Shown here in pieces: positions 13,879-45,144 of a stretch of DNA of 64,000 nucleotides. The notes below the pieces were generated by a model, which worked only from the letters and a program-made list of their open reading frames with translations, did not search any database and had not been told where the DNA came from. Position numbers and translations under genes: made by a program. Source of the DNA: Escherichia coli (GTDB lineage: Bacteria > Pseudomonadota > Gammaproteobacteria > Enterobacterales > Enterobacteriaceae); the NCBI RefSeq assembly GCF_041886205.1, contig NZ_CP169029.1; one strand, given 5' to 3'. Position 1 is the first letter of the stretch. Each line of letters starts with the position of its first letter.

Positions 13879-13888
13879 TTATTCATTT

Positions 13889-13916
13889 GCCGGAGTGGGC
13901 GAACCCCCACTCCGGC
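13889..13916. terminator. GC-rich stem-loop between convergent artJ and sulfatase gene (no U-tract on either strand)
   Basis: gccggagtggg / cccactccggc 11-bp perfect stem; located between two stop codons. Confidence 0.4.
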
Positions 13917-13928
13917 AAAATCACCTCT

Positions 13929-15410
13929 CTACACTAACCCCAGGCGCTGAAACTGCTCTGGCGGCGCATCATTGTCTTTCATCAACTGAATCAGCAACGC
14001 GATCATCCGGGCCTCGATCGCATCATCATGAATCGGATGCAGCTGCTGCGGATCGTTTTGCAGATCAAACAGCAAATGACCAAACTGATTCAGCCCCTTA
14101 TATTTCTCCTGTGCCGGGATGCGTAGCACCTTTAACCCTTTGGTGAAACGAAACGGTGGAGCCAGCGATAAAGCCCGCATCTCATCCACCGGATAGCGGC
14201 TGTTCATTTTGCAAGCCATTAAGGTGTAGTTAGCAATATCATCCTCACGCCCCGGCAGCGCGGCACGCATATACACATAACGCCCATCGGTTACGTTGAC
14301 ATGACCACTGAAGACACCAAATATAACCGCACTGCGTACCGGTTCATCGTGGCTGACCGTTTTCGCCAGCGGTTGCCCCTGCACATCGGGCGGCACCGGC
14401 TGCTGAAAAAAGTCATACAACGTAGGTGCCCAGTCGATCATCTGCACCAGCGCCTGACGCCGTTCGCCTTTTACACCGCTGCGCGGATCCCATATAAACA
14501 GCGGGTTATTCGCCACTTCGTTGTAATAAGGCATCTGGTTTTTCGCCCACCAGCCATGCTCACCAAGTAAAAAACCGTGGTCGGTGCCAACAATCAGCAT
14601 GGTGTCTCGCCACAGATCGTGCTCATCCATCAGGTCGAGAATGCGCCCCAGGTTACGATCGCACATCGATACCAGCGAGCGATATCGGCAGCGGATATGC
14701 TCCACGGCCTCGTCGCTTTCCTGAACCCTGCCACGTGGCCAGTCATAATACGGCCCGCTCCAGTCATCCTCATATAACGAAAGGTACTCTTCCGTTGTGT
14801 AAAACGGCTCGTGCGGATCAAACGTTTCGACCTGCAATAACCAGTTATCTTGCGCGTGGTTTTTGTGGATAAATGCACAACCCGCGTCAAAGACTTTGGT
14901 TTGGGGAAAATCCGCTTCCTGCTGAATATATTCCCGGTTGGCCCAGTCATGACGCCACAGGCCAGAAACACCGCCGCCGGTCTGCTTTTGCGGCTCCCGT
15001 AGCACCTCGGGAATAGGCGGTTGCGCAACGCTCGCCTGCCAGTGATCGCCTTCCTGGCCGCGCACAATCTCCCATGAACTGTAGCGATTATGGTAATTTC
15101 CGCCACCATCTTCCCAGTAATGCAAATGATCGCTTATCAGGTGGGTATAGATCCCCGCCTTTGTAAGCAGCTCCGGCATGGAGTCGTCAAACGGTTCTAA
15201 CGGCCCCCACTCCCGGTGCAGAAAATTGCATCGCCCGGTATGCAGCTCCCGTCGGGCGGGCATGCAGGGCATACTCCCGACGTAGCTGTTTTCAAAGGTG
15301 GCGGCATGTGCCGCCAGGCGTTGGAAGTTCTCTGCTTTTGTCAATAAGTCGCCATACGGGGGTAAATATCTTTTGTTCAGGCTATCGAACAGGAGAATAA
15401 TGGCTTTCAT
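13929..15410 (-). CDS. Cys-type (formylglycine) sulfatase family protein, predicted cytoplasmic (no signal peptide)
   Basis: 493-aa ORF; sulfatase signature C-x-P-x-R (SMPCMPARRELHTGR) at residues ~46-60; N-terminal LLFDSL..YG resembles sulfatase metal-binding start; last gene of PTS operon. Confidence 0.8.
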   Translation of the reverse strand: MKAIILLFDSLNKRYLPPYGDLLTKAENFQRLAAHAATFENSYVGSMPCMPARRELHTGRCNFLHREWGPLEPFDDSMPELLTKAGIYTHLISDHLHYWEDGGGNYHNRYSSWEIVRGQEGDHWQASVAQPPIPEVLREPQKQTGGGVSGLWRHDWANREYIQQEADFPQTKVFDAGCAFIHKNHAQDNWLLQVETFDPHEPFYTTEEYLSLYEDDWSGPYYDWPRGRVQESDEAVEHIRCRYRSLVSMCDRNLGRILDLMDEHDLWRDTMLIVGTDHGFLLGEHGWWAKNQMPYYNEVANNPLFIWDPRSGVKGERRQALVQMIDWAPTLYDFFQQPVPPDVQGQPLAKTVSHDEPVRSAVIFGVFSGHVNVTDGRYVYMRAALPGREDDIANYTLMACKMNSRYPVDEMRALSLAPPFRFTKGLKVLRIPAQEKYKGLNQFGHLLFDLQNDPQQLHPIHDDAIEARMIALLIQLMKDNDAPPEQFQRLGLV

Positions 15411-15422
15411 TGCTCATCCCTT

Positions 15423-15743
15423 TTATTTGTTTATCAGATAAGGGAAATGCTGTTGGACGACTTCATAAATCTGTGCACCAATCGTTTCACCATCCATAAT
15501 ATTTTCAATCGGGATCAGATATTGCCCGTGTTTCGGGTCCAGACTGACTACGTCGAGTAATTTTTTGGAAATAGCAAAAATATCTGCCCAGTCGGTAAAT
15601 CCTCCCACCTCACCTGCGGCAGTATGTTCCATTTCAACTTTGAACTCATATTTCGTCAGTGCTTTTTTAACGACCGTTTGTAACATCACGCTACTACCGA
15701 CACCATAACCACAGACAAACAGAATATTAATTGTATCTTTCAT
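15423..15743 (-). CDS. PTS EIIB component, L-ascorbate (UlaB/SgaB) family
   Basis: 106-aa ORF; N-terminal INILFVCGYGVGSS with phospho-accepting Cys in the position typical of UlaB-type EIIB. Confidence 0.8.
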   Translation of the reverse strand: MKDTINILFVCGYGVGSSVMLQTVVKKALTKYEFKVEMEHTAAGEVGGFTDWADIFAISKKLLDVVSLDPKHGQYLIPIENIMDGETIGAQIYEVVQQHFPYLINK

Positions 15744-15764
15744 TTTTACATCCTTAATAGTGAA

Positions 15765-17108
15765 TTATCCCGCGTAAGGACCAAGGTGGAATGTTGCAGC
15801 GATAAATTTCAGAACTTCACAAATAGCAGGCCATACAGTTGCCCAGTCAAATATTCCTGTCCAGCCGACGCCATTTTCAGCAAGCCCGGTTAACGGAATA
15901 GCCCACACCGTACCGAAGGTCTGAATAATACCCAGCAAGAAGGTACAGATAATTACGGAGCGGTATCCGCCCATGCGGTTTGCTAAAACGCCAATCGGGC
16001 CGCCTGAGAAAAATAACGGTACAAAGCCTGGCAATACCATAATGGGGCTGTGGATCAGTAATAAGATACCCATCGAGAAAATGGTGCCAAAAGTACAGAA
16101 GACAAAACCTAACGTTGCGGCTTTGGGTGAAAAAGGCAACAGCGCGGCGACATCGACGGCGGGAATGGCATTAGGAATAAAGCGATCCTGCCAGCCTTTA
16201 AAAGAACCGTTAATTTCACCGACCATCATGCGCACGCCCTGCAACAGAATGACCATGTACATGGAGAACTGTAAGCCCAGGTTGATAATATAGATGTACC
16301 AGGGTTTACCTTTTGCCATCATCTGAACGTTATCGATGCCCGTGGAGAGCAGGAACCCGCCAACAAACAGCGTCATCACAATGGCGATAGCCGTCACGTT
16401 GTGGTTAAAAATCGCCAGCCAGCCGGGGAGTTTCAGGTTTTCAGCATCGTGCTTTTCCGGGTCGCCAAATTTATGCGCGAATTTGGAGAAAAACCACAAA
16501 CCCAACATCTGGTTATGGGCAATGGTAAAACCGGCATCTTTGGTCACTTTGGCAATGGGTTTAGCAATGAGCGTGGTGGAAAAAGCCCAGAATATACCCG
16601 TTAATACCCCGGCGATAATAATCGATGTAGTCCAGCTAAATCCTAACCAAAAAACGATTAACCATAATACTGCCTGAGAATGTGACACACCGGTATTACC
16701 GGTCAGGAATATTCCTTTGGCACCGGTATAGCGACCAAACAGCACCAGTAAGAGGTTGGTAAAAAACGCCAGAACAAATACATAACCTACGTAACCAAAA
16801 TTATCCCCCAACGCAATTTGCGTTGCGGCTTTCATGGCGTAGGAATCCATTAAATAACCGTGAACGCCATAGGCTTTACTTACCGCTTCTGCCACCGGTT
16901 TAAAGGTTGCGGAAAACTGAAAACCACCAAATAGCACCATCATTAATCCCACCATGGCACTGACCATACCGGTGATTATTTTGATGGGCGATTTTTTATC
17001 GAGGGCATAACCAATGCCCACCAGCAAACCAATTAATATTGCGGGTTCGGTTAAAAACGTTTGAATAACATCTATGAATTTGGCAAACATCGTCGGAACG
17101 CCCTCCAT
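15765..17108 (-). CDS. PTS EIIC permease, L-ascorbate (UlaA/SgaT) family
   Basis: 447-aa polytopic membrane ORF immediately upstream of the EIIB gene; length and hydrophobic profile typical of UlaA-like EIIC; start could be ATG at 17108 or ATG 18 nt downstream. Confidence 0.8.
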   Translation of the reverse strand: MEGVPTMFAKFIDVIQTFLTEPAILIGLLVGIGYALDKKSPIKIITGMVSAMVGLMMVLFGGFQFSATFKPVAEAVSKAYGVHGYLMDSYAMKAATQIALGDNFGYVGYVFVLAFFTNLLLVLFGRYTGAKGIFLTGNTGVSHSQAVLWLIVFWLGFSWTTSIIIAGVLTGIFWAFSTTLIAKPIAKVTKDAGFTIAHNQMLGLWFFSKFAHKFGDPEKHDAENLKLPGWLAIFNHNVTAIAIVMTLFVGGFLLSTGIDNVQMMAKGKPWYIYIINLGLQFSMYMVILLQGVRMMVGEINGSFKGWQDRFIPNAIPAVDVAALLPFSPKAATLGFVFCTFGTIFSMGILLLIHSPIMVLPGFVPLFFSGGPIGVLANRMGGYRSVIICTFLLGIIQTFGTVWAIPLTGLAENGVGWTGIFDWATVWPAICEVLKFIAATFHLGPYAG

Positions 17109-17296
17109 AAGCGTACATTTCCGTTGTCAATGCATGAACCTTCTGCTGACGTTAATAATGCTTCAGGTATTTTTTATTTTTCGCTAAGCGATGCCTCTGC
17201 TAGTATTCGGTAAACGCACTGTAGTAATCAAAACAGTTCATTTAAAGATCTTATTTGATTATTTGTGATTTGATTTGCAAAAATAGCGCAATATAT

Positions 17297-17339
17297 AACC
17301 GTGATCGATCGGTTAATATTAATCGATCGATCACGGTTA
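17297..17339. promoter_or_regulatory. 43-bp near-perfect inverted repeat containing four GATC sites; candidate operator upstream of the PTS-sulfatase operon (or rlmC 3' hairpin)
   Basis: aaccgtgatcgatcggttaatattaatcgatcgatcacggtta is self-complementary with a single mismatched pair; two GATCGATC blocks. Confidence 0.5.
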
Positions 17340-17388
17340 TTATTTGGAATGGATGTATGCCGAAGTGATATTGATTTGAGTGATGTAT

Positions 17389-18516
17389 TTACATTTTTAC
17401 CAGCAGCGTCAGCACTTCATAGTGCGCGGTGTGCGGGAACATATCAAAAAGCTGTACCCGTTCAATACGAAACCCAGGCAGTTCGCGGATATCTTTCGCC
17501 ATAGTTTGGGCGTTACAGCTGGAGTAGATAATAAAACGCGGTGCCATCGTTGAGAGATAATCACACAGCGGTTTACCAATGCCGCGGCGCGGCGGGTTAA
17601 CCAGCACCAGCTCCGGCACCTCCCCCTGAGCGGTGGCAAACTGAGTGGAGTCCAGCGCCTGAAATTGCAAACGCGTTAAGCCCAGTTCAGCGGCTGACTG
17701 CTTTGCACAGGCAATGGCCTCTGGCGCAATTTCGATCCCGGTTAACTGCATGTCAGGCGTCGCGCAGTGTAAACCAAAGCCCCCCACACCGCAGAACAGA
17801 TCCCACATATGTTTAACCGGCAGCTGTCGTACCCAGTCGCGCGCGGTGGCGTACAACTGGCTGGCGACAGCCGGATTAGTCTGGAAGAAACTTTGCGGAC
17901 GGATCCACAGCGGTACGTCATTAAAACGCTCCGCCAGCGACTGTTGTTCGGTCAGGTAGATCTCCGTCTCCCCTTCCATAATCGCCATATGTACCGGCTG
18001 AATATTGACGGTAATAACTTTCAGCTGCGGTAGTTGTTCCTGTAACCACGGCAATGCCTTACGCAGTTGTGCCAGTTTGGTTTCAGAACGCAGTACAAAG
18101 CGCAGCATCATGCCGCCATCGCTCTGGCTTTCAGTCAGCAGAATGTATTTCAGTTCGCCACGCTTACGCGCCACGTTGTAGGGCGTTAACCCCGCTCGGG
18201 CGATAAACGGTTTTAGCGCCGCAAAAACGGGCGCAAATGAGGCAGGATAAAGCGGGCAGTCACAAAGGTCTTCTGGTGTGCCGTCGCGATGCAGCATACC
18301 GAGCAGTGGTTTTTCAACGCTACCACTCACCACCATTTTGGCTTTATTACGAAACCCTTGTTCCGGGCCTGACACCGGCGCGCACCATTCCTCAACCGGA
18401 AAGTCGGCGAGCAGATTTTTAAGATCGGCGGTTTTAGCGGAGAGTTGCTCTGGAATCGGCTGCGTTATCCACTGACAGGAACGACAGCGACCCGCGTCGT
18501 AAAGTGCGCACTGCAT
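17389..18516 (-). CDS. rlmC: 23S rRNA (uracil747-C5)-methyltransferase RlmC
   Basis: 375-aa ORF; N-terminal Cys cluster [14 protein letters not shown] (Fe-S) and SAM-MTase C-terminal half; exact K-12 length. Confidence 0.93.
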
Positions 18517-38998: not shown

Positions 38999-40324
38999 AT
39001 GAGCAAAGTAACTCCCCAGCCGAAAATCGGCTTTGTTTCCCTTGGCTGTCCGAAAAACCTTGTTGATTCAGAGCGTATTCTCACCGAACTCCGCACTGAA
39101 GGTTATGACGTGGTACCGAGCTATGACGATGCGGACATGGTGATCGTCAACACCTGCGGCTTTATTGACAGCGCGGTACAAGAATCACTGGAAGCCATTG
39201 GTGAAGCGTTGAATGAAAACGGCAAGGTTATTGTGACCGGTTGTCTGGGGGCAAAAGAAGATCAGATCCGCGAAGTCCACCCGAAAGTGCTGGAAATCAC
39301 CGGGCCTCATAGCTATGAGCAGGTTCTGGAGCACGTTCATCACTACGTGCCGAAACCGAAACACAACCCATTCCTGAGCCTGGTGCCAGAACAAGGTGTG
39401 AAACTGACGCCGCGTCATTATGCCTATCTGAAAATTTCTGAAGGCTGTAATCACCGCTGCACCTTCTGCATTATTCCGTCTATGCGCGGCGACCTGGTGA
39501 GCCGTCCGATTGGCGAAGTGTTAAGTGAAGCGAAACGTCTGGTAGATGCGGGCGTTAAAGAGATTCTGGTGATCTCGCAGGATACTTCCGCCTATGGCGT
39601 TGATGTTAAACATCGTACTGGCTTCCACAACGGCGAGCCGGTAAAAACCAGCATGGTCAGCCTGTGCGAACAGTTATCGAAACTGGGGATCTGGACACGT
39701 CTGCACTACGTTTACCCTTATCCGCATGTGGACGACGTCATCCCACTGATGGCAGAAGGCAAAATCCTGCCGTATCTGGACATTCCGTTGCAGCACGCCA
39801 GCCCGCGCATTCTCAAACTGATGAAGCGTCCGGGTTCTGTAGATCGCCAACTGGCGCGCATCAAACAGTGGCGCGAAATCTGCCCGGAACTGACCCTACG
39901 CTCAACCTTTATTGTCGGCTTCCCTGGCGAGACGGAAGAAGATTTCCAGATGCTACTCGACTTCCTGAAAGAAGCGCGTCTGGATCGCGTTGGCTGCTTT
40001 AAATACAGCCCGGTTGAAGGTGCAGACGCCAATGCCCTGCCTGACCAGGTTCCGGAAGAAGTGAAAGAAGAACGCTGGAACCGTTTCATGCAGCTGCAGC
40101 AGCAGATTTCCGCCGAGCGCCTGCAAGAGAAAGTGGGCCGTAAAATTCTGGTGATTATCGACGAAGTGGACGAAGAAGGCGCAATTGGTCGCAGCATGGC
40201 AGATGCACCGGAAATCGACGGCGCGGTTTATCTCAATGGTGAAACCAACGTTAAGCCGGGTGATATCCTGCGTGTGAAAGTCGAGCACGCCGATGAGTAC
40301 GATTTGTGGGGTAGCCGGGTTTAA
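38999..40324 (+). CDS. rimO: Ribosomal protein S12 methylthiotransferase RimO (radical SAM)
   Basis: 441-aa ORF; radical-[11 protein letters not shown] motif; N-terminal MTTase Cys residues. Confidence 0.95.
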
Positions 40325-40370
40325 TTAATTCAGGCCGGGCAAAATCATTTGTCCGGCCTGCGAATAATGA

Positions 40371-41699
40371 TTACTGCCAGCTAATCTGTGCCCTGCCGTT
40401 TTTCTTACTCTTATACAGCCGCTCATCCGCCAGCATTTTCAAGCGTTCGACGGTAGGACATTCATTTGAATGTGCTACACCGATACTGGTACTTAAATTA
40501 ATGCTTCCCACCTGGAAATGAACGATTTCTTTTAGAATCGATAGCAACTCTTCCAGCGTTCCACCCGTATAAATCACCGCAAATTCGTCACCGCCGAAGC
40601 GGTAGACTTTACCTTTATCTACCGGGATCTGTGATTTAAGGATTTTCACCACTTTCATCAACACTTCATCGCCCAGCAAATGACCGAAGGTGTCGTTAAT
40701 GTTTTTGAATTTATCGACGTCAAACAGGCACAAATAACCGCCTTTTTCCGGCAGCGCTTTTAAATCTTCGTCAAAGGATTTTCTGCCCATTGCTTTGGTC
40801 AGGTCGTCCAGGAACGCCGAGTTATACATACTGTAGAGTTTTTTGACATCGGCAGCCGAAAAGAAAAGCCCGCCATCCAGTACGCGTTCAAAATGGTTAT
40901 TAATGATGGCTTCTTTCTCCACAATACCACGATTAATCACTCTGCGTACCAGATAGAGGCAACTGGCACCCGATATCACTGCCACCAATGCGGCAAAGAA
41001 AATAATCAATGTACAAACCCGCAAATAAACATCTTTTTTATACGCAAATACATACAATCCGGTCGGCAAATAGGCGAAGTGCTCCATCGCTTCCGAAACG
41101 GTGAAGATGGCGTTTTTAGCATTATATTCATCACCGGTCACCGGTTTACCGTTCTTAAATAGAGAGAACATCAGGTTCTCGCTGTCCATCGCCAGCGATT
41201 TTGACAGTAAAGAAAAACGCTCCAGACCAAGCAAAAATATCAGACTACGATTGTGAGTTACCGGATAGAGGTAATAGACGAAGGTTTTACCGTCAAAAGA
41301 GATAAACCCTGTATTTTTGACATGTCGATACTTCACAACCTGCATAATATCTGCACAATAATTTTTCTCGAACTCCTTTACCTGAATACATTCGTCACTG
41401 GAAATCAGATAAGGACCGACATCGTACAAATAAGAGGGGGAAACCGAGTCGGCGTAAGCTGTGCGCAAACCAACCAACAGCTGTTCCTCCGTGGGATTTA
41501 GCGTGTTGATAAGATCAATTGCCACGCTACGCCGATATTCAGCAATATTTGCCACCGCAAAAGCAGTATCAATAACGGACTGTTTCAGGCTATACACCCG
41601 TTCCTTTACCATTTGAGTGTAGATCCCGCAGGCAACTGCTGAAATCATGATAAAAATCAGCAGACTGACTGTAAGTACGAACTTATTGATTCTGGACAT
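40371..41699 (-). CDS. dgcI: Diguanylate cyclase DgcI (YliF)
   Basis: 442-aa ORF; GGDEF motif (RFGGDEFAV) in C-terminal domain; N-terminal membrane/periplasmic region. Confidence 0.9.
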
Positions 41700-41706
41700 A
41701 CGTAAA

Positions 41707-44055
41707 CTACTCTTTTACTAATTTTCCACTTTTATCCCAGGCGGAGAATGGCATGGGTTTCTGGTACAGATACCCCTGAGCCTGAACACATCCTAATTTA
41801 ATTAATTCGCGCGCAACGTCTTCGCTCTCTACGCCTTCCGCAATCACCGGGATCCGGTTATAGCGTGCCAGATCGAAAATAATGCGCACAATTTTTCCCG
41901 CAGTACCGAAAATATCGCCGGTAAATTGCGAGTCCACCTTTATGCTGTCTGGATTAATTTCATAAAAACGTTTCAGGTTTGACAAACCGGTGCCAAAGTC
42001 ATCAATCGATATCCGTACCCCTTGTTTACGCAGTTGTTCAATATTGAGATAAAAATGTTCATTAATTCGCTCGATCACGGTTTCAGTGATCTCAACACAG
42101 AGGCTGTTCGCCTTCAGGCCATTTTCTTTCATGATGGTGGTAAAACACTCATGAAAGTGCGGTTCGTTTAACTGCCAGGGCGAAACATTAATATGCAGTA
42201 AGAAATCATCCTTCAGCGACGCACGCTGACTAAAATGTCTGAATTCACCCATTGCCGTTTTAATAATCTGATAACCCAGCTCATTGATAAACCCGATATC
42301 TTCAGCAATGGTAATGAACTTCAGCGGTGAAATGATCCCCCGCTCCGCAGAAACCCAACGGCACAACGCCTCCGCGCCCAGAATGGCGCGGGTGTTAATA
42401 TCAACGATCGGTTGATAGACGAGGAATAGTTCGCCAATTTCCATTGCATGGCGAATATTACGCGCAATCCAGATATTCTCTTCTATTTCGTTGAGTTTCG
42501 CGTCATCACAGAAAATAAACTCGGAGAACATATGGTCACGGATACTGGAAATCGCCAGTTTCAGTTTTTCTGCGTAACTCCAGGCGTTTTCCCCCTGCAA
42601 AGGTTCACAAATGGCAGACTTATGGATGCGCAGATTGCGGTAGCCAAAGCTGCTGTCAAAATCGTTTACCATCGCTATTTTACGGGTAAATGTCTGTACA
42701 TTTTCCCGACACAGAAGTAAATAGAGATCGGCATTGAATGTCACGATATCGCAGCATTGCGCATATTTCTCGGCAATTCGCTGACACAATTTCCTGACGA
42801 TTTTATTGCGTTCATCAACACCAAACACCGCTTCCACGGCTTCCAGACCACACAGTTTGATGATCCCCACAGCCAGATACTGATTATTGTTGGACTCAAT
42901 AATCGCCATATTTTTAATAAAACCGCTTTCCTGATCGTAAGAGATCAGTGAGAGCAATTTATTTGACCGTTCAATTTCGGCATCTTTCATTTCCGCGATC
43001 GAATTTTTGATGCTGATAATCTCTTTCGCATCGCCTTCGCGAATTTTCAGAGCCTCGATCTGATCCGTTGAGTCGGGCAAAAACGCCAGCGTATTAACCA
43101 GCTCGGTCATTTCAGAAAATTGCCGACGGAACACACGAGTGGTCATGAAATATACCACCAGCAACACGATAATAATGAACGCAAACGGTAGATAAAAAAG
43201 TTTATCTGATGCGTTCAATAAATTACCGCCAGGATAATAAAAATAGATTTCGAACAATGCATTATTTGGCACTGCTGATGTCTTTGCAATATACTCCGTA
43301 TCGACAGAATCAATAATATTATAATTACCTTCGCTATTATAAATAATCAGTTTTTCACGAGCGAGTTGATTCTTGGCAATGATCTCATGACCTTGTTTCA
43401 AAAATAGAACTTCATCATTAGCGCTGATTTGATCAAGATACTCGTTCAGATACCGCCAGTTTAAATCGACATGAATTTTATCTACCGCTAACAAATCGTG
43501 ATCTTTGCCGTTGATACGTAGCGTAAAAGAGATACATTTTTTACCCGGACGATCAAAGCAATTGTTTGCCGGATTCCAGCTGTTGTTAGAGTCATCTGAA
43601 GCCACCGACCACGGTCGTTTCGATGGGTTAAAATCGGCAAAAATAACCCGCCCTGACTCGTCGACAAGCGGTCCATTTACTTGTTCCTGATGATAAACAA
43701 CGATTTTATCATTCGCCCTCCGCGAAAAGAGATAATATTTATTATCATCAAGTACCAGTCCCACCGAGTCTAAAAATGGCATCATTTCCATTTTCAGAAT
43801 CACGGCGCGTTGAATCTCCTCTGTATTTTTTAATAAATACAGTGAGTCCTTTAATGTCAGGGCCGAACGTTCAATATCTTTAAAGAAATAGCCAACGTTT
43901 TTCTGAATAAGTTCAAAGCGGCTATCGGCACGTTTTACCGCGCGTTCCGATACCAGTTGATAGTTAATGATGAAAAAAAGACCAATAAATGACAGTGCTG
44001 CCAATAAAAATAAAATTATCAGCCTTATCTTTATCTTTTCGTATAAACTCAGCAT
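41707..44055 (-). CDS. pdeI: c-di-GMP phosphodiesterase PdeI (YliE), EAL domain
   Basis: ORF trimmed to ATG at 44055 (782 aa); EAL signature (GAEALCRW) in C-terminal domain. Confidence 0.88.
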
Positions 44056-44232
44056 GTTAATACATTTAACAAAATAACTATCTGAACGCTGTGCCGCTGC
44101 AAAAATAGTCCCTTGCTGCGGCTTTTTAACCAAATTACCCGATTCTACAAAATCAGCAGAAAGTTACAACACTTGCTTAGGGCAATAATTTCCTGTGAGG
44201 TGATTACCCTTTTAAGCAATATTCAAACGTAA

Positions 44233-45144
44233 CTATCCTTTAATTTTCGGATCCAGCGCATCGCGTAAACCATCGCCCAACAAATTGAACGCCAGTACGG
44301 TCAGAAAAATAGCCAGGGCCGGAAAAACAGCGACATGCGGCGCGATAACCATATCCGCTCGTGCCTCATTGAGCATTGCTCCCCACTCTGGTGTCGGCGG
44401 CTGCGCACCGAGGCCGAGAAATGACAGGCTGGCGGCAGAGATAATCGAGGTGCCAATGCGCATGGTGAAAAACACCACGATAGACGAGACGGTCCCAGGC
44501 AAGATATGACGCAATAAAATGGTCATATCGCTGGCACCAATACTGCGTGCTGACTCAATAAAGGTTTGCTGTTTCAACACCAGCGTGTTGCCGCGCACCA
44601 GTCGGGCAAACGCGGGGATGGAAAAAATGGCGACTGCGATAATCACGTTAGCAATGCCGCTTCCCAACACCGCAACAACAGCGATCGCCAGTAAAATACC
44701 CGGGAAGGCAAACAGCACATCGCAAATGCGCATGATCAGCCGATCCCACCAGCCTTCATAATATCCAGCCAACAAGCCCAGCAACGTCCCGATCGCCGCA
44801 CCGATAAACACGGCAAACACGCCCGCCGCCAGCGAGATTTGCGCACCAACCAGGACACGGCTGAAAATGTCACGCCCCAGTGAATCGACGCCAAACCAGT
44901 GCTGCAAAGAAGGTCCGTTATTCAGGTTGTCATAATCAAAATAATTTTCGGCGTCATAGGGAGCGATCCAGCGTGCAAAAATGGCCACCACAATCAATAA
45001 AATAACGAATAATGCGGCGGTCATCGCCATATGCTGACGGCGAAATCGTCGCCAGAATTCATGCCACGGTGTACGCACCTGGTCAGGTTTGACCAGTGGC
45101 ATGGCGTTTAACACCGCCTGACGTCGCCAGTTAAATAGTCGCAT
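44233..45144 (-). CDS. gsiD: Glutathione ABC transporter permease GsiD
   Basis: 303-aa membrane ORF; operon order iaaA-gsiABCD. Confidence 0.92.

Follow-up and report, generated by a model that had tools for sequence, protein, structure and literature searches.

The pdeI-dgcI locus

The stretch of DNA analysed here (the window) is a segment of 64,000 nucleotides of the Escherichia coli chromosome, running from poxB to mntR (contig NZ_CP169029.1). Within it, two adjacent genes, dgcI and pdeI, encode a diguanylate cyclase and a phosphodiesterase of the signalling nucleotide cyclic di-GMP (c-di-GMP), and their RefSeq annotation coincides exactly with positions 40371-44055. The origin of this AT-rich pair, which probably entered the chromosome in an ancient insertion, is the subject of this analysis. 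The genes, their parts, and their flanks are listed in Table 1. A sequence-only reading of the window had placed the pair in K-12 as well, and the locus is indeed that of K-12 PdeI (YliE, b0833) and DgcI (YliF, b0834), with no difference; several complete genomes with pdeI and dgcI annotated also match the region at 100% identity over 3763 bp.

Start assignment for pdeI at 44055 is backed by the length of all homologues (777-783 amino acids, aa), and the open reading frame (ORF) could be extended up to a TTG at 44133. As read from the sequence, the very short gap between the genes and the single AT-rich spacer upstream indicate that pdeI and dgcI form one operon, within which translational coupling is possible. 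The upstream spacer contains a promoter-like site at 44169-44142, and a 250-bp fragment upstream of pdeI has been reported to be an active promoter that drove expression (PMC11651652).

Table 1. Features of the pdeI-dgcI locus and its flanks (positions in the window; TM, transmembrane helix; GC, guanine plus cytosine content).
Feature	Position	Strand	Description
rimO	38999-40324	+	Conserved flank, convergent with dgcI
Hairpin	40332-40359		GC-rich, AGGCCGGGCAAA-ATCA-TTTGTCCGGCCT; in the 46-bp convergent rimO/dgcI gap
dgcI (yliF)	40371-41699	-	442 aa; TM, GAPES2 periplasmic sensor, TM, GGDEF diguanylate cyclase; RefSeq and Pfam
DgcI GGDEF domain	40389-40817	-	aa 295-437
DgcI GAPES2 sensor	41013-41624	-	aa 26-229
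pdeI stop/dgcI start spacer	41700-41706	-	7 nt; read from sequence
pdeI (yliE)	41707-44055	-	782 aa; TM, periplasmic CHASE9/double-Cache sensor (fold predicted), TM, HAMP region, degenerate GGDEF, EAL phosphodiesterase; RefSeq and Pfam
PdeI EAL domain	41710-42462	-	aa 532-782
PdeI degenerate GGDEF	42463-42927	-	About aa 377-531, G412 included
PdeI periplasmic sensor coding	43192-43959	-	About aa 33-288
gsiD-pdeI spacer	44056-44232	-	177 bp, GC 0.367
gsiD	44233-45144	-	Conserved flank, upstream of pdeI, co-directional

Base composition and codon usage

In 500-bp windows the GC content is 0.51-0.55 in rimO, drops to 0.37-0.45 within the pair, and is back at 0.51-0.57 in gsiDCBA. As a whole, 40371-44055 has a GC content of 0.424 compared with 0.505 for the window, making it the second-lowest stretch of its length; the lowest is an accessory island at about 6.3-9.3 kb. 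Gene by gene, dgcI (0.435) and pdeI (0.418) lie well below the 0.526 +/- 0.028 of the 49 other genes in the window (z-scores of -3.3 and -3.9), and the pair thus shows the atypical base composition by which genomic islands are recognized. These values bear out the earlier impression that the two genes are more AT-rich than their rimO and gsi flanks. The most AT-rich coding part is the sensor half of PdeI (aa 1-300; GC 0.377, GC at third codon positions, GC3, 0.383), and GC stays at 0.37-0.39 over about 43000-44232.

The deficit is spread about equally over all three codon positions of dgcI and pdeI: 0.485 and 0.489 at first positions (GC1) compared with 0.597 in the 49 other genes, 0.323 and 0.309 at second positions (GC2) compared with 0.403, and 0.497 and 0.455 at third positions compared with 0.578. 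It was divided into the GC that amino-acid composition would give with synonymous codons used as in the other genes pooled, and a remainder. The amino-acid level accounts for -0.073 of the -0.096 deficit in dgcI and -0.082 of the -0.114 deficit in pdeI, a share of 72-76% (z = -3.1 and -3.4), while the synonymous component is unremarkable (z = -1.2 and -1.75). In keeping with this division, FYMINK residues (Phe, Tyr, Met, Ile, Asn, Lys) make up 0.33 of DgcI and 0.35 of PdeI compared with 0.236 +/- 0.033 in products of the other window genes, and GARP residues (Gly, Ala, Arg, Pro) 0.19 of the pair compared with 0.271. Codon usage is not atypical: the distance of each gene to the pooled window genes is 0.264 for dgcI and 0.235 for pdeI, compared with 0.254 +/- 0.039 for a reference set of genes encoding more than 300 aa. 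Of the two departures from the genomic average on which the sequence-only reading had staked its case, the one in GC was found and the one in codon usage was not.

Low GC is also common among E. coli genes of this class. Twelve other K-12 genes for GGDEF or EAL proteins have a mean GC of 0.468 (range 0.385-0.527); pdeI and dgcI fall within this spread, and cdgI and dgcT lie below them. Because codon usage is normal and low GC is widespread in the c-di-GMP genes of E. coli, composition by itself is weak support for horizontal acquisition. The same figures would suit a pair that was inherited vertically and lost elsewhere, its AT-richness arising from the composition of membrane and periplasmic sensor proteins (Ile, Asn, Lys, Phe, Tyr) and from weak expression. 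The large amino-acid share of the deficit, the normal synonymous component and codon-usage distance, and the low GC of the other GGDEF and EAL genes all favour such a history, as do borders that carry no mobile-element scars and the core status of the pair in E. coli. Its weaknesses appear in the gene order and distribution of the pair.

An occupied junction between rimO and gsiD

Gene order was compared among the species-representative genomes listed in a RimO-anchored scan, followed by tblastn of the neighbouring proteins. In at least four other enterobacterial genomes rimO and gsiD are convergent and only 44-107 bp apart, the gap being essentially a hairpin; such empty sites were seen in Citrobacter werkmanii, Enterobacter sp. 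Bisph1, Enterobacter sp. BIGb0383, and Mangrovibacter. The same junction is occupied by pdeI-dgcI in E. coli, E. albertii, and E. fergusonii. This clean abutment in four genomes speaks against vertical descent of the pair. In C. werkmanii a hairpin comparable to that at 40332-40359 occupies the empty gap, and the E. coli hairpin marks the rimO-side edge of the insertion. On the other side, the inserted block takes in the 177-bp gsiD-pdeI spacer, where the pdeI promoter region lies.

Other DNA has been found at this junction. In Superficieibacter it is occupied by 3 kb of unrelated genes. A HEAT-repeat-like ORF lies just downstream of rimO both in E. albertii (L004 2016-2729, 237 aa), where it sits between rimO and dgcI, and in Superficieibacter electus (L005 12652-13341, 229 aa), and the E. 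albertii ORF is homologous to a Superficieibacter ORF. Since both the Superficieibacter genes and the E. albertii ORF are found here, the rimO-gsiD junction is a recurrent insertion point.

An empty site and a restricted taxonomic range are further features that the pair has in common with genomic islands; strain-variable presence, another such feature, is not seen, as 5425 of 5426 complete E. coli genomes carry the pair, essentially always on the chromosome. One 'plasmid' copy (H12) was rejected as evidence of mobility because the 55-kb circle is a deposited chromosomal segment from iaaA to mdfA. These data bear on another possibility, that pdeI-dgcI belongs with the strain-variable AT-rich islands in other parts of the window and arrived recently or can still move. 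A sharply bounded dip in GC and the recurrent use of the junction would fit, but such an island would not be expected in nearly every genome, at the same site in three species, with a ratio of nonsynonymous to synonymous substitution rates (dN/dS) of about 0.05 and normal codon usage. The contrasting island at 6747-9301, with a GC of 0.32, is present in only 1128 of the 5426 genomes. A recent island is scarcely credible for pdeI-dgcI, and the distribution data effectively refute it.

Taxonomic range and plasmid-borne relatives

Word-indexed searches with the sensor halves returned, among the matches listed, only E. coli/Shigella, E. albertii, E. marmotae, and E. fergusonii. For the PdeI sensor, used by itself and then in a six-sequence profile, the matches listed were E. 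coli fragments and the plasmid lineages described below were not recovered, so these searches are uninformative on CHASE9 outside Escherichia. An exhaustive HMMER search with the DgcI sensor found 35 proteins among 1.84 billion cluster representatives. Most were Escherichia fragments, and two were full-length relatives of about 25% identity. Cluster members were checked for eight matches, the two full-length proteins and six more divergent short ones: E. coli names were found for both full-length proteins and two of the short matches, another short match is labelled Klebsiella quasipneumoniae, and three are nameless. For three distant matches (P0053, P0062, P0058), whose representatives lie on contigs of 1.4-1.7 kb, genomic context was read from cluster members. 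The phylogenetic check proposed in the sequence-only reading thus shows a DgcI sensor essentially confined to Escherichia.

Some individual matches deserve comment. The only GAPES2-like match with a label from outside Escherichia (P0070, labelled K. quasipneumoniae, on a 91-kb contig) is a 118-aa fragment that looks frameshifted and in places is almost the same as E. coli DgcI; a remnant, contamination, or a plasmid gene would each account for it. A DgcI fragment of 66% identity (P0029) was set aside as the same locus in a frameshift-ridden assembly. Large clusters of truncated DgcI or PdeI were also seen (P0004, P0039, P0040, P0043, P0025), with sizes of 399 aa (1305 members), 445 aa (667), 674 aa (2052), and 523 aa (1708), and including partial Shigella flexneri sequence. 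These may be contig-end fragments or lineage-specific pseudogenes.

Both full-length relatives are the second gene of a cassette in which a CHASE9-EAL gene (about 780 aa) precedes a GAPES2-GGDEF gene (about 440 aa). Three plasmid cassette lineages were distinguished which, with the chromosomal pair, make four lineages of the same gene order, with identities among them of 30-37% for the Pde and 32-40% for the Dgc proteins. The gap between the genes is 7 bp on the chromosome and 2, 25, and -11 bp in the plasmid cassettes. The sensors of plasmid types 1 and 2 score 77 and 23 bits with Pfam CHASE9 and 85 and 59 bits with GAPES2, and the catalytic motifs are intact in all lineages. Identity among the four lineages in the catalytic domains is 50-53% for GGDEF and 45-51% for EAL, compared with 26-34% to K-12 paralogues; as these domains are each other's closest relatives, the cassette appears to be a monophyletic unit rather than the product of domain shuffling.

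Plasmid cassettes have a GC content of 0.30-0.35 (GC3 0.25-0.31) within plasmid DNA of 0.44-0.55. In the PLSDB database, 103 of the 104 plasmids that bear them are from Escherichia. The surroundings are of E. coli plasmid type: a Rep3-family replication protein is encoded at type 1 loci, with insertion sequence (IS) elements and fimbrial genes on the flanks, and type 3 comes from an IncHI1B plasmid. Types 1 and 3 adjoin bcsA (GT2 plus PilZ) and bcsB, with bcsC as well in type 3. Homologues of YliE and YliF (28-41% identity) have been described as the commonest c-di-GMP proteins encoded beside plasmid bcsA2-4 clusters, and their restriction to Escherichia and shared domain architectures were noted in the same work, which proposed that they either diversified on plasmids or came from a distant source not yet identified (bioRxiv 10.1101/2025.05.09.653004). 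Two further observations concern these plasmids. The type 2 PdeI-like protein (L093 7636-9975, plasmid CP034746.1) has about ten tandem 'INS' tripeptide repeats in its periplasmic sensor, and a group II intron reverse transcriptase/maturase (ltrA) is inserted among the plasmid bcs genes that adjoin the cassette, with bcsB on one side and bcsC on the other (L090 19121-20466; L097 12351-13697).

The existence of these relatives raises the question of direction. The chromosomal pair might be the original, from which the plasmid cassettes were mobilized and then rapidly diversified in Escherichia, in which case AT-richness would say nothing of a foreign donor. This possibility was raised as a hypothesis in the 2025 preprint cited above; all known members are found in Escherichia, and for both proteins the nearest lineage to the chromosomal one is plasmid type 3. 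However, identities of 30-40% are far deeper than the split between the E. coli and E. fergusonii pairs (69-78%), the GC and GC3 of the plasmid cassettes are well under any Escherichia background, and the insertion between rimO and gsiD would be left unexplained. We regard a chromosomal origin of the plasmid cassettes as unlikely. Vertical inheritance of the pair fares worse: it would need many independent complete losses to leave a single fragment with GAPES2 outside the genus among 1.84 billion representatives, and homologous cassettes on plasmids are contrary to it. Taken with the empty sites, these points make it decidedly improbable.

Evolution of the pair within Escherichia

The pair is under purifying selection: in the comparison with E. 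albertii, dgcI has a dN/dS of 0.049 and pdeI one of 0.056, within the 0.003-0.08 of the flanking genes. The GC contents in E. coli, E. albertii, and E. fergusonii are 0.436, 0.418, and 0.391 for dgcI and 0.418, 0.399, and 0.402 for pdeI; GC1 (about 0.48) and GC2 (about 0.31) are unchanged across the three species.

The E. fergusonii block from gsiA to deoR (CU928158.2 997071-1015419, L085) is about as divergent from E. coli as the corresponding Citrobacter block, with synonymous divergence (dS) of 1.1-2.1 and amino-acid identities of 87% for GsiD and 82% for GsiA. The adjoining moeA and moeB are close to E. coli (dS 0.25 and 0.42), and iaaA is absent at the boundary of the block. The pattern points to an old divergent haplotype or to a segment imported by recombination, pdeI-dgcI included. 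With dS to E. fergusonii saturated and the history of this block anomalous, a quantitative date of amelioration was rejected.

Protein domains and predicted sensor folds

The GGDEF domain of DgcI is recognized by PF00990 (87.9 bits, cut-off 23.8) and TIGR00254 (90.8 bits, cut-off 37.4). Its RFGGDEF active site is intact, and the motif is kept in six of six cassette sequences. On reading the sequence, an RxxD inhibitory site was not found upstream of GGDEF in DgcI; such a site is common in the GGDEF family and not defining for it. The EAL domain of PdeI (PF00563, 231.4 bits, cut-off 31.3) has an intact catalytic and Mg-binding set (EALCR, N, EITE, DDFGTG, KVD, EGVES, QGY), and EALCR or ELLAR, DDFG.G, and EGVE are found in all cassette lineages. 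In a published residue table DgcI has the consensus KNDHDRGGDEF with 'GE' at the I-site, and the catalytic residues of PdeI match the consensus (PMC3484386). To judge from these motifs, DgcI would be an active-type GGDEF and PdeI an active-type EAL protein. The degenerate GGDEF of PdeI gave no Pfam GGDEF match and is without the catalytic motif; it can be aligned with the GGDEF portion of GepA and DosP, which are tandem GGDEF-EAL families, is conserved among the cassette lineages, and has no blastp match to K-12 paralogue proteins.

In the sensors, GAPES2 of DgcI (PF17156) scores 475.9 bits and CHASE9 of PdeI (PF17153), which lies within a larger periplasmic module, 210.3 bits, each against a cut-off of 27. 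Pfam Cache-family models gave no match at E <= 0.01 for chromosomal PdeI or DgcI, and MCP-like_PDC_1 reached 18 bits, under its cut-off of 27, in plasmid type 1 PdeI only. AlphaFold models of the sensors, built from six-sequence alignments, have a predicted local distance difference test score of 81 for PdeI and 82 for DgcI, and a predicted template modelling (TM) score of 0.69. In Foldseek the PdeI model matched best to a double-Cache (dCache) domain of an Aeromonas caviae diguanylate cyclase (PDB 7k5n, E 2e-8), with a target-normalized TM score of 0.73 against KinD; the DgcI model matched KinD and CqsR at E of about 1e-4, with TM scores of up to 0.60, and also Tlp3. All top PDB matches of both models are dCache domains, with Foldseek probabilities of about 1.0 and moderate TM scores. 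Both sensors are predicted from these models to have a dCache fold between two transmembrane helices. They were also considered as mutual duplicates, a relationship rejected at an hhalign probability of 0.8%.

Residues invariant across the four lineages include W160, C166, C174, and S176 in the PdeI sensor and E54, R56, R57, C104, and C115 in the DgcI sensor, so that each has an invariant Cys pair (C166/C174 and C104/C115). The domain prediction called for in the sequence-only reading accordingly gives CHASE9, GAPES2, and predicted dCache folds; its expectation that novelty resides in the N-terminal sensors holds in so far as these are orphans in sequence, and fails in so far as the predicted fold is a common one.

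Reported activity and expression

The adherence phenotype of a yliF deletion is complemented by the heterologous cyclase WspR (PMC3484386), which is indirect evidence of cyclase activity in DgcI, and overexpression of pdeI blocks phage N4 as that of other phosphodiesterases (PDEs) does (PMC7553319). In another study PdeI is membrane-bound and marks a biofilm subpopulation; its overexpression raises c-di-GMP 11-fold, and a G412S change in the degenerate GGDEF abolishes this rise (PMC11651652). The two sets of results, PDE-like behaviour towards phage N4 and raised c-di-GMP, are in conflict. The latter study does not mention DgcI; since the degenerate GGDEF of PdeI is without a catalytic motif, a plausible alternative is that the rise acts through the co-encoded DgcI.

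Both genes are expressed more at 37 C than at 23 C (PMC12890032). AT-rich DNA at about 43000-44232 and higher expression at 37 C are prerequisites of silencing by H-NS; a statement on yliE/pdeI from H-NS chromatin immunoprecipitation or an hns mutant was not found in the literature searched.

A more speculative view, which we think doubtful, is that the pde-dgc pair is an obligate two-protein membrane sensor unit, in which the degenerate GGDEF of PdeI controls DgcI and the invariant periplasmic Cys pairs let the unit sense redox or disulfide state, and that the cassette came from an unsampled AT-rich reservoir as a portable local controller of c-di-GMP for PilZ-dependent exopolysaccharide synthases. 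If so, control of DgcI by PdeI would reconcile the reports of lowered and raised c-di-GMP.

A probable ancient insertion

Taken together, the findings make it probable that pdeI-dgcI is a two-gene c-di-GMP sensor cassette whose source was an AT-rich gene pool, probably carried on plasmids. It would have entered the chromosome a single time, before the genus Escherichia radiated, and have been vertically inherited thereafter. Acquisition is supported by the empty site, the Escherichia-restricted DgcI sensor, and the plasmid cassettes in the same gene order, and its age by the presence of the pair in 5425 of 5426 genomes, the shared site in three species, the dN/dS of about 0.05, and equilibrated synonymous usage. 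After this single event at the convergent gsiD/rimO junction, purifying selection would have kept the pair as a core operon with its promoter in the AT-rich gsiD-pdeI spacer. Synonymous sites would by now have largely equilibrated to the host, and the AT-rich signature would persist mainly in the FYMINK-rich, GARP-poor protein sequence, where purifying selection may hold it, in the promoter, and in the 5' sensor-coding part of pdeI. The plasmid relatives may show how AT-rich the family is when not resident in a chromosome. The proposal of an old horizontally acquired module in the sequence-only reading is supported in this respect by synteny, taxonomic restriction, and plasmid relatives; codon usage lends it nothing.

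Several points weigh against this account. Codon usage is normal, AT-richness is shared with other E. coli GGDEF and EAL genes, and the amino-acid-level deficit could reflect protein constraints. Mobility genes, a tRNA gene, and flanking direct repeats were not found at the borders of the pair, where a search for direct or inverted repeats gave only short matches at chance level. The synteny sample is small: Salmonella and Klebsiella were not among the matches listed in the RimO-anchored scan, and their lack of the pair is taken from the exhaustive GAPES2 search instead. At 30-40% identity the plasmid cassettes are too divergent to be the direct source, and a donor taxon was not identified among the searched proteins. 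The unusually divergent E. fergusonii block complicates dating, and the report of raised c-di-GMP sits awkwardly with a PDE. The account also includes two functional suppositions, namely that periplasmic signals may set c-di-GMP breakdown by PdeI against synthesis by DgcI, and that the cassette may be a local controller of an exopolysaccharide synthase, as suggested by the two of three plasmid lineages that adjoin a c-di-GMP-dependent (PilZ) cellulose synthase.

The locus, its domains, the plasmid relatives, and the genus restriction are already in the literature; added here are the quantification of composition, the empty-site evidence, and the rate estimates. The findings are sound and ordinary, and leave current understanding largely unchanged. 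They highlight that, even with codon usage equilibrated, a compositional dip in a core region of the E. coli genome can be the trace of an ancient insertion, with the signal kept mainly in amino-acid composition. Empty-site synteny, taxonomic restriction, and mobile relatives were the decisive evidence here, and composition alone would have been insufficient. Conservation of pdeI and dgcI as a two-gene unit across four deeply diverged lineages argues for their joint study.

Other features of the window

Two accessory blocks lie elsewhere in the window. The insertion at 6747-9301, between ybjQ and ybjP, is annotated with a pentapeptide repeat-containing protein and is strain-variable, unlike pdeI-dgcI. 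At 13886-17395, between artJ and rlmC, a block encoding a sulfatase and the phosphotransferase system (PTS) components IIC and IIB occurs in 566 of 5426 complete genomes. At 57794-57979 the window lacks ybiU and the 3' end of ybiV that strain EC5 has, about 1.5 kb being replaced by about 42 bp; the adjoining 144 bp have 86% identity, in inverted orientation, to the EC5 artJ-rlmC spacer, which suggests a dispersed repeat at the edge of the deletion.

Comparison with known systems

Among known sensors, the dCache domains of Bacillus subtilis KinD, Vibrio cholerae CqsR and Mlp24/37, Campylobacter jejuni Tlp3, and PDB 7k5n resemble the PdeI and DgcI sensors in predicted fold. Sequence identity to them is only 7-15%, Pfam dCache models do not match, and the PdeI and DgcI sensors differ by their invariant Cys pair, which is not known to be a general dCache feature.

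The plasmid YliE and YliF homologues beside bcsA2-4 clusters (bioRxiv 10.1101/2025.05.09.653004) have the same two genes, order, and domain architecture as the chromosomal pair, with intact GGDEF and EAL motifs and catalytic domains closest to those of the pair. They differ in being plasmid-borne and IS-flanked, in their identity of 30-40%, and in a GC of 0.30-0.35 compared with 0.42-0.44. Types 1 and 3 adjoin bcsAB(C), whereas the chromosomal pair has no adjacent exopolysaccharide genes.

With the classical genomic islands of E. coli, the pair shares a low GC content, sharply defined boundaries, a place between conserved genes where it was inserted, a site that is empty in relatives, and a restricted taxonomic range. 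Unlike them, it is core, is without an integrase, tRNA, or direct repeats, and combines host-like codon usage with purifying selection.

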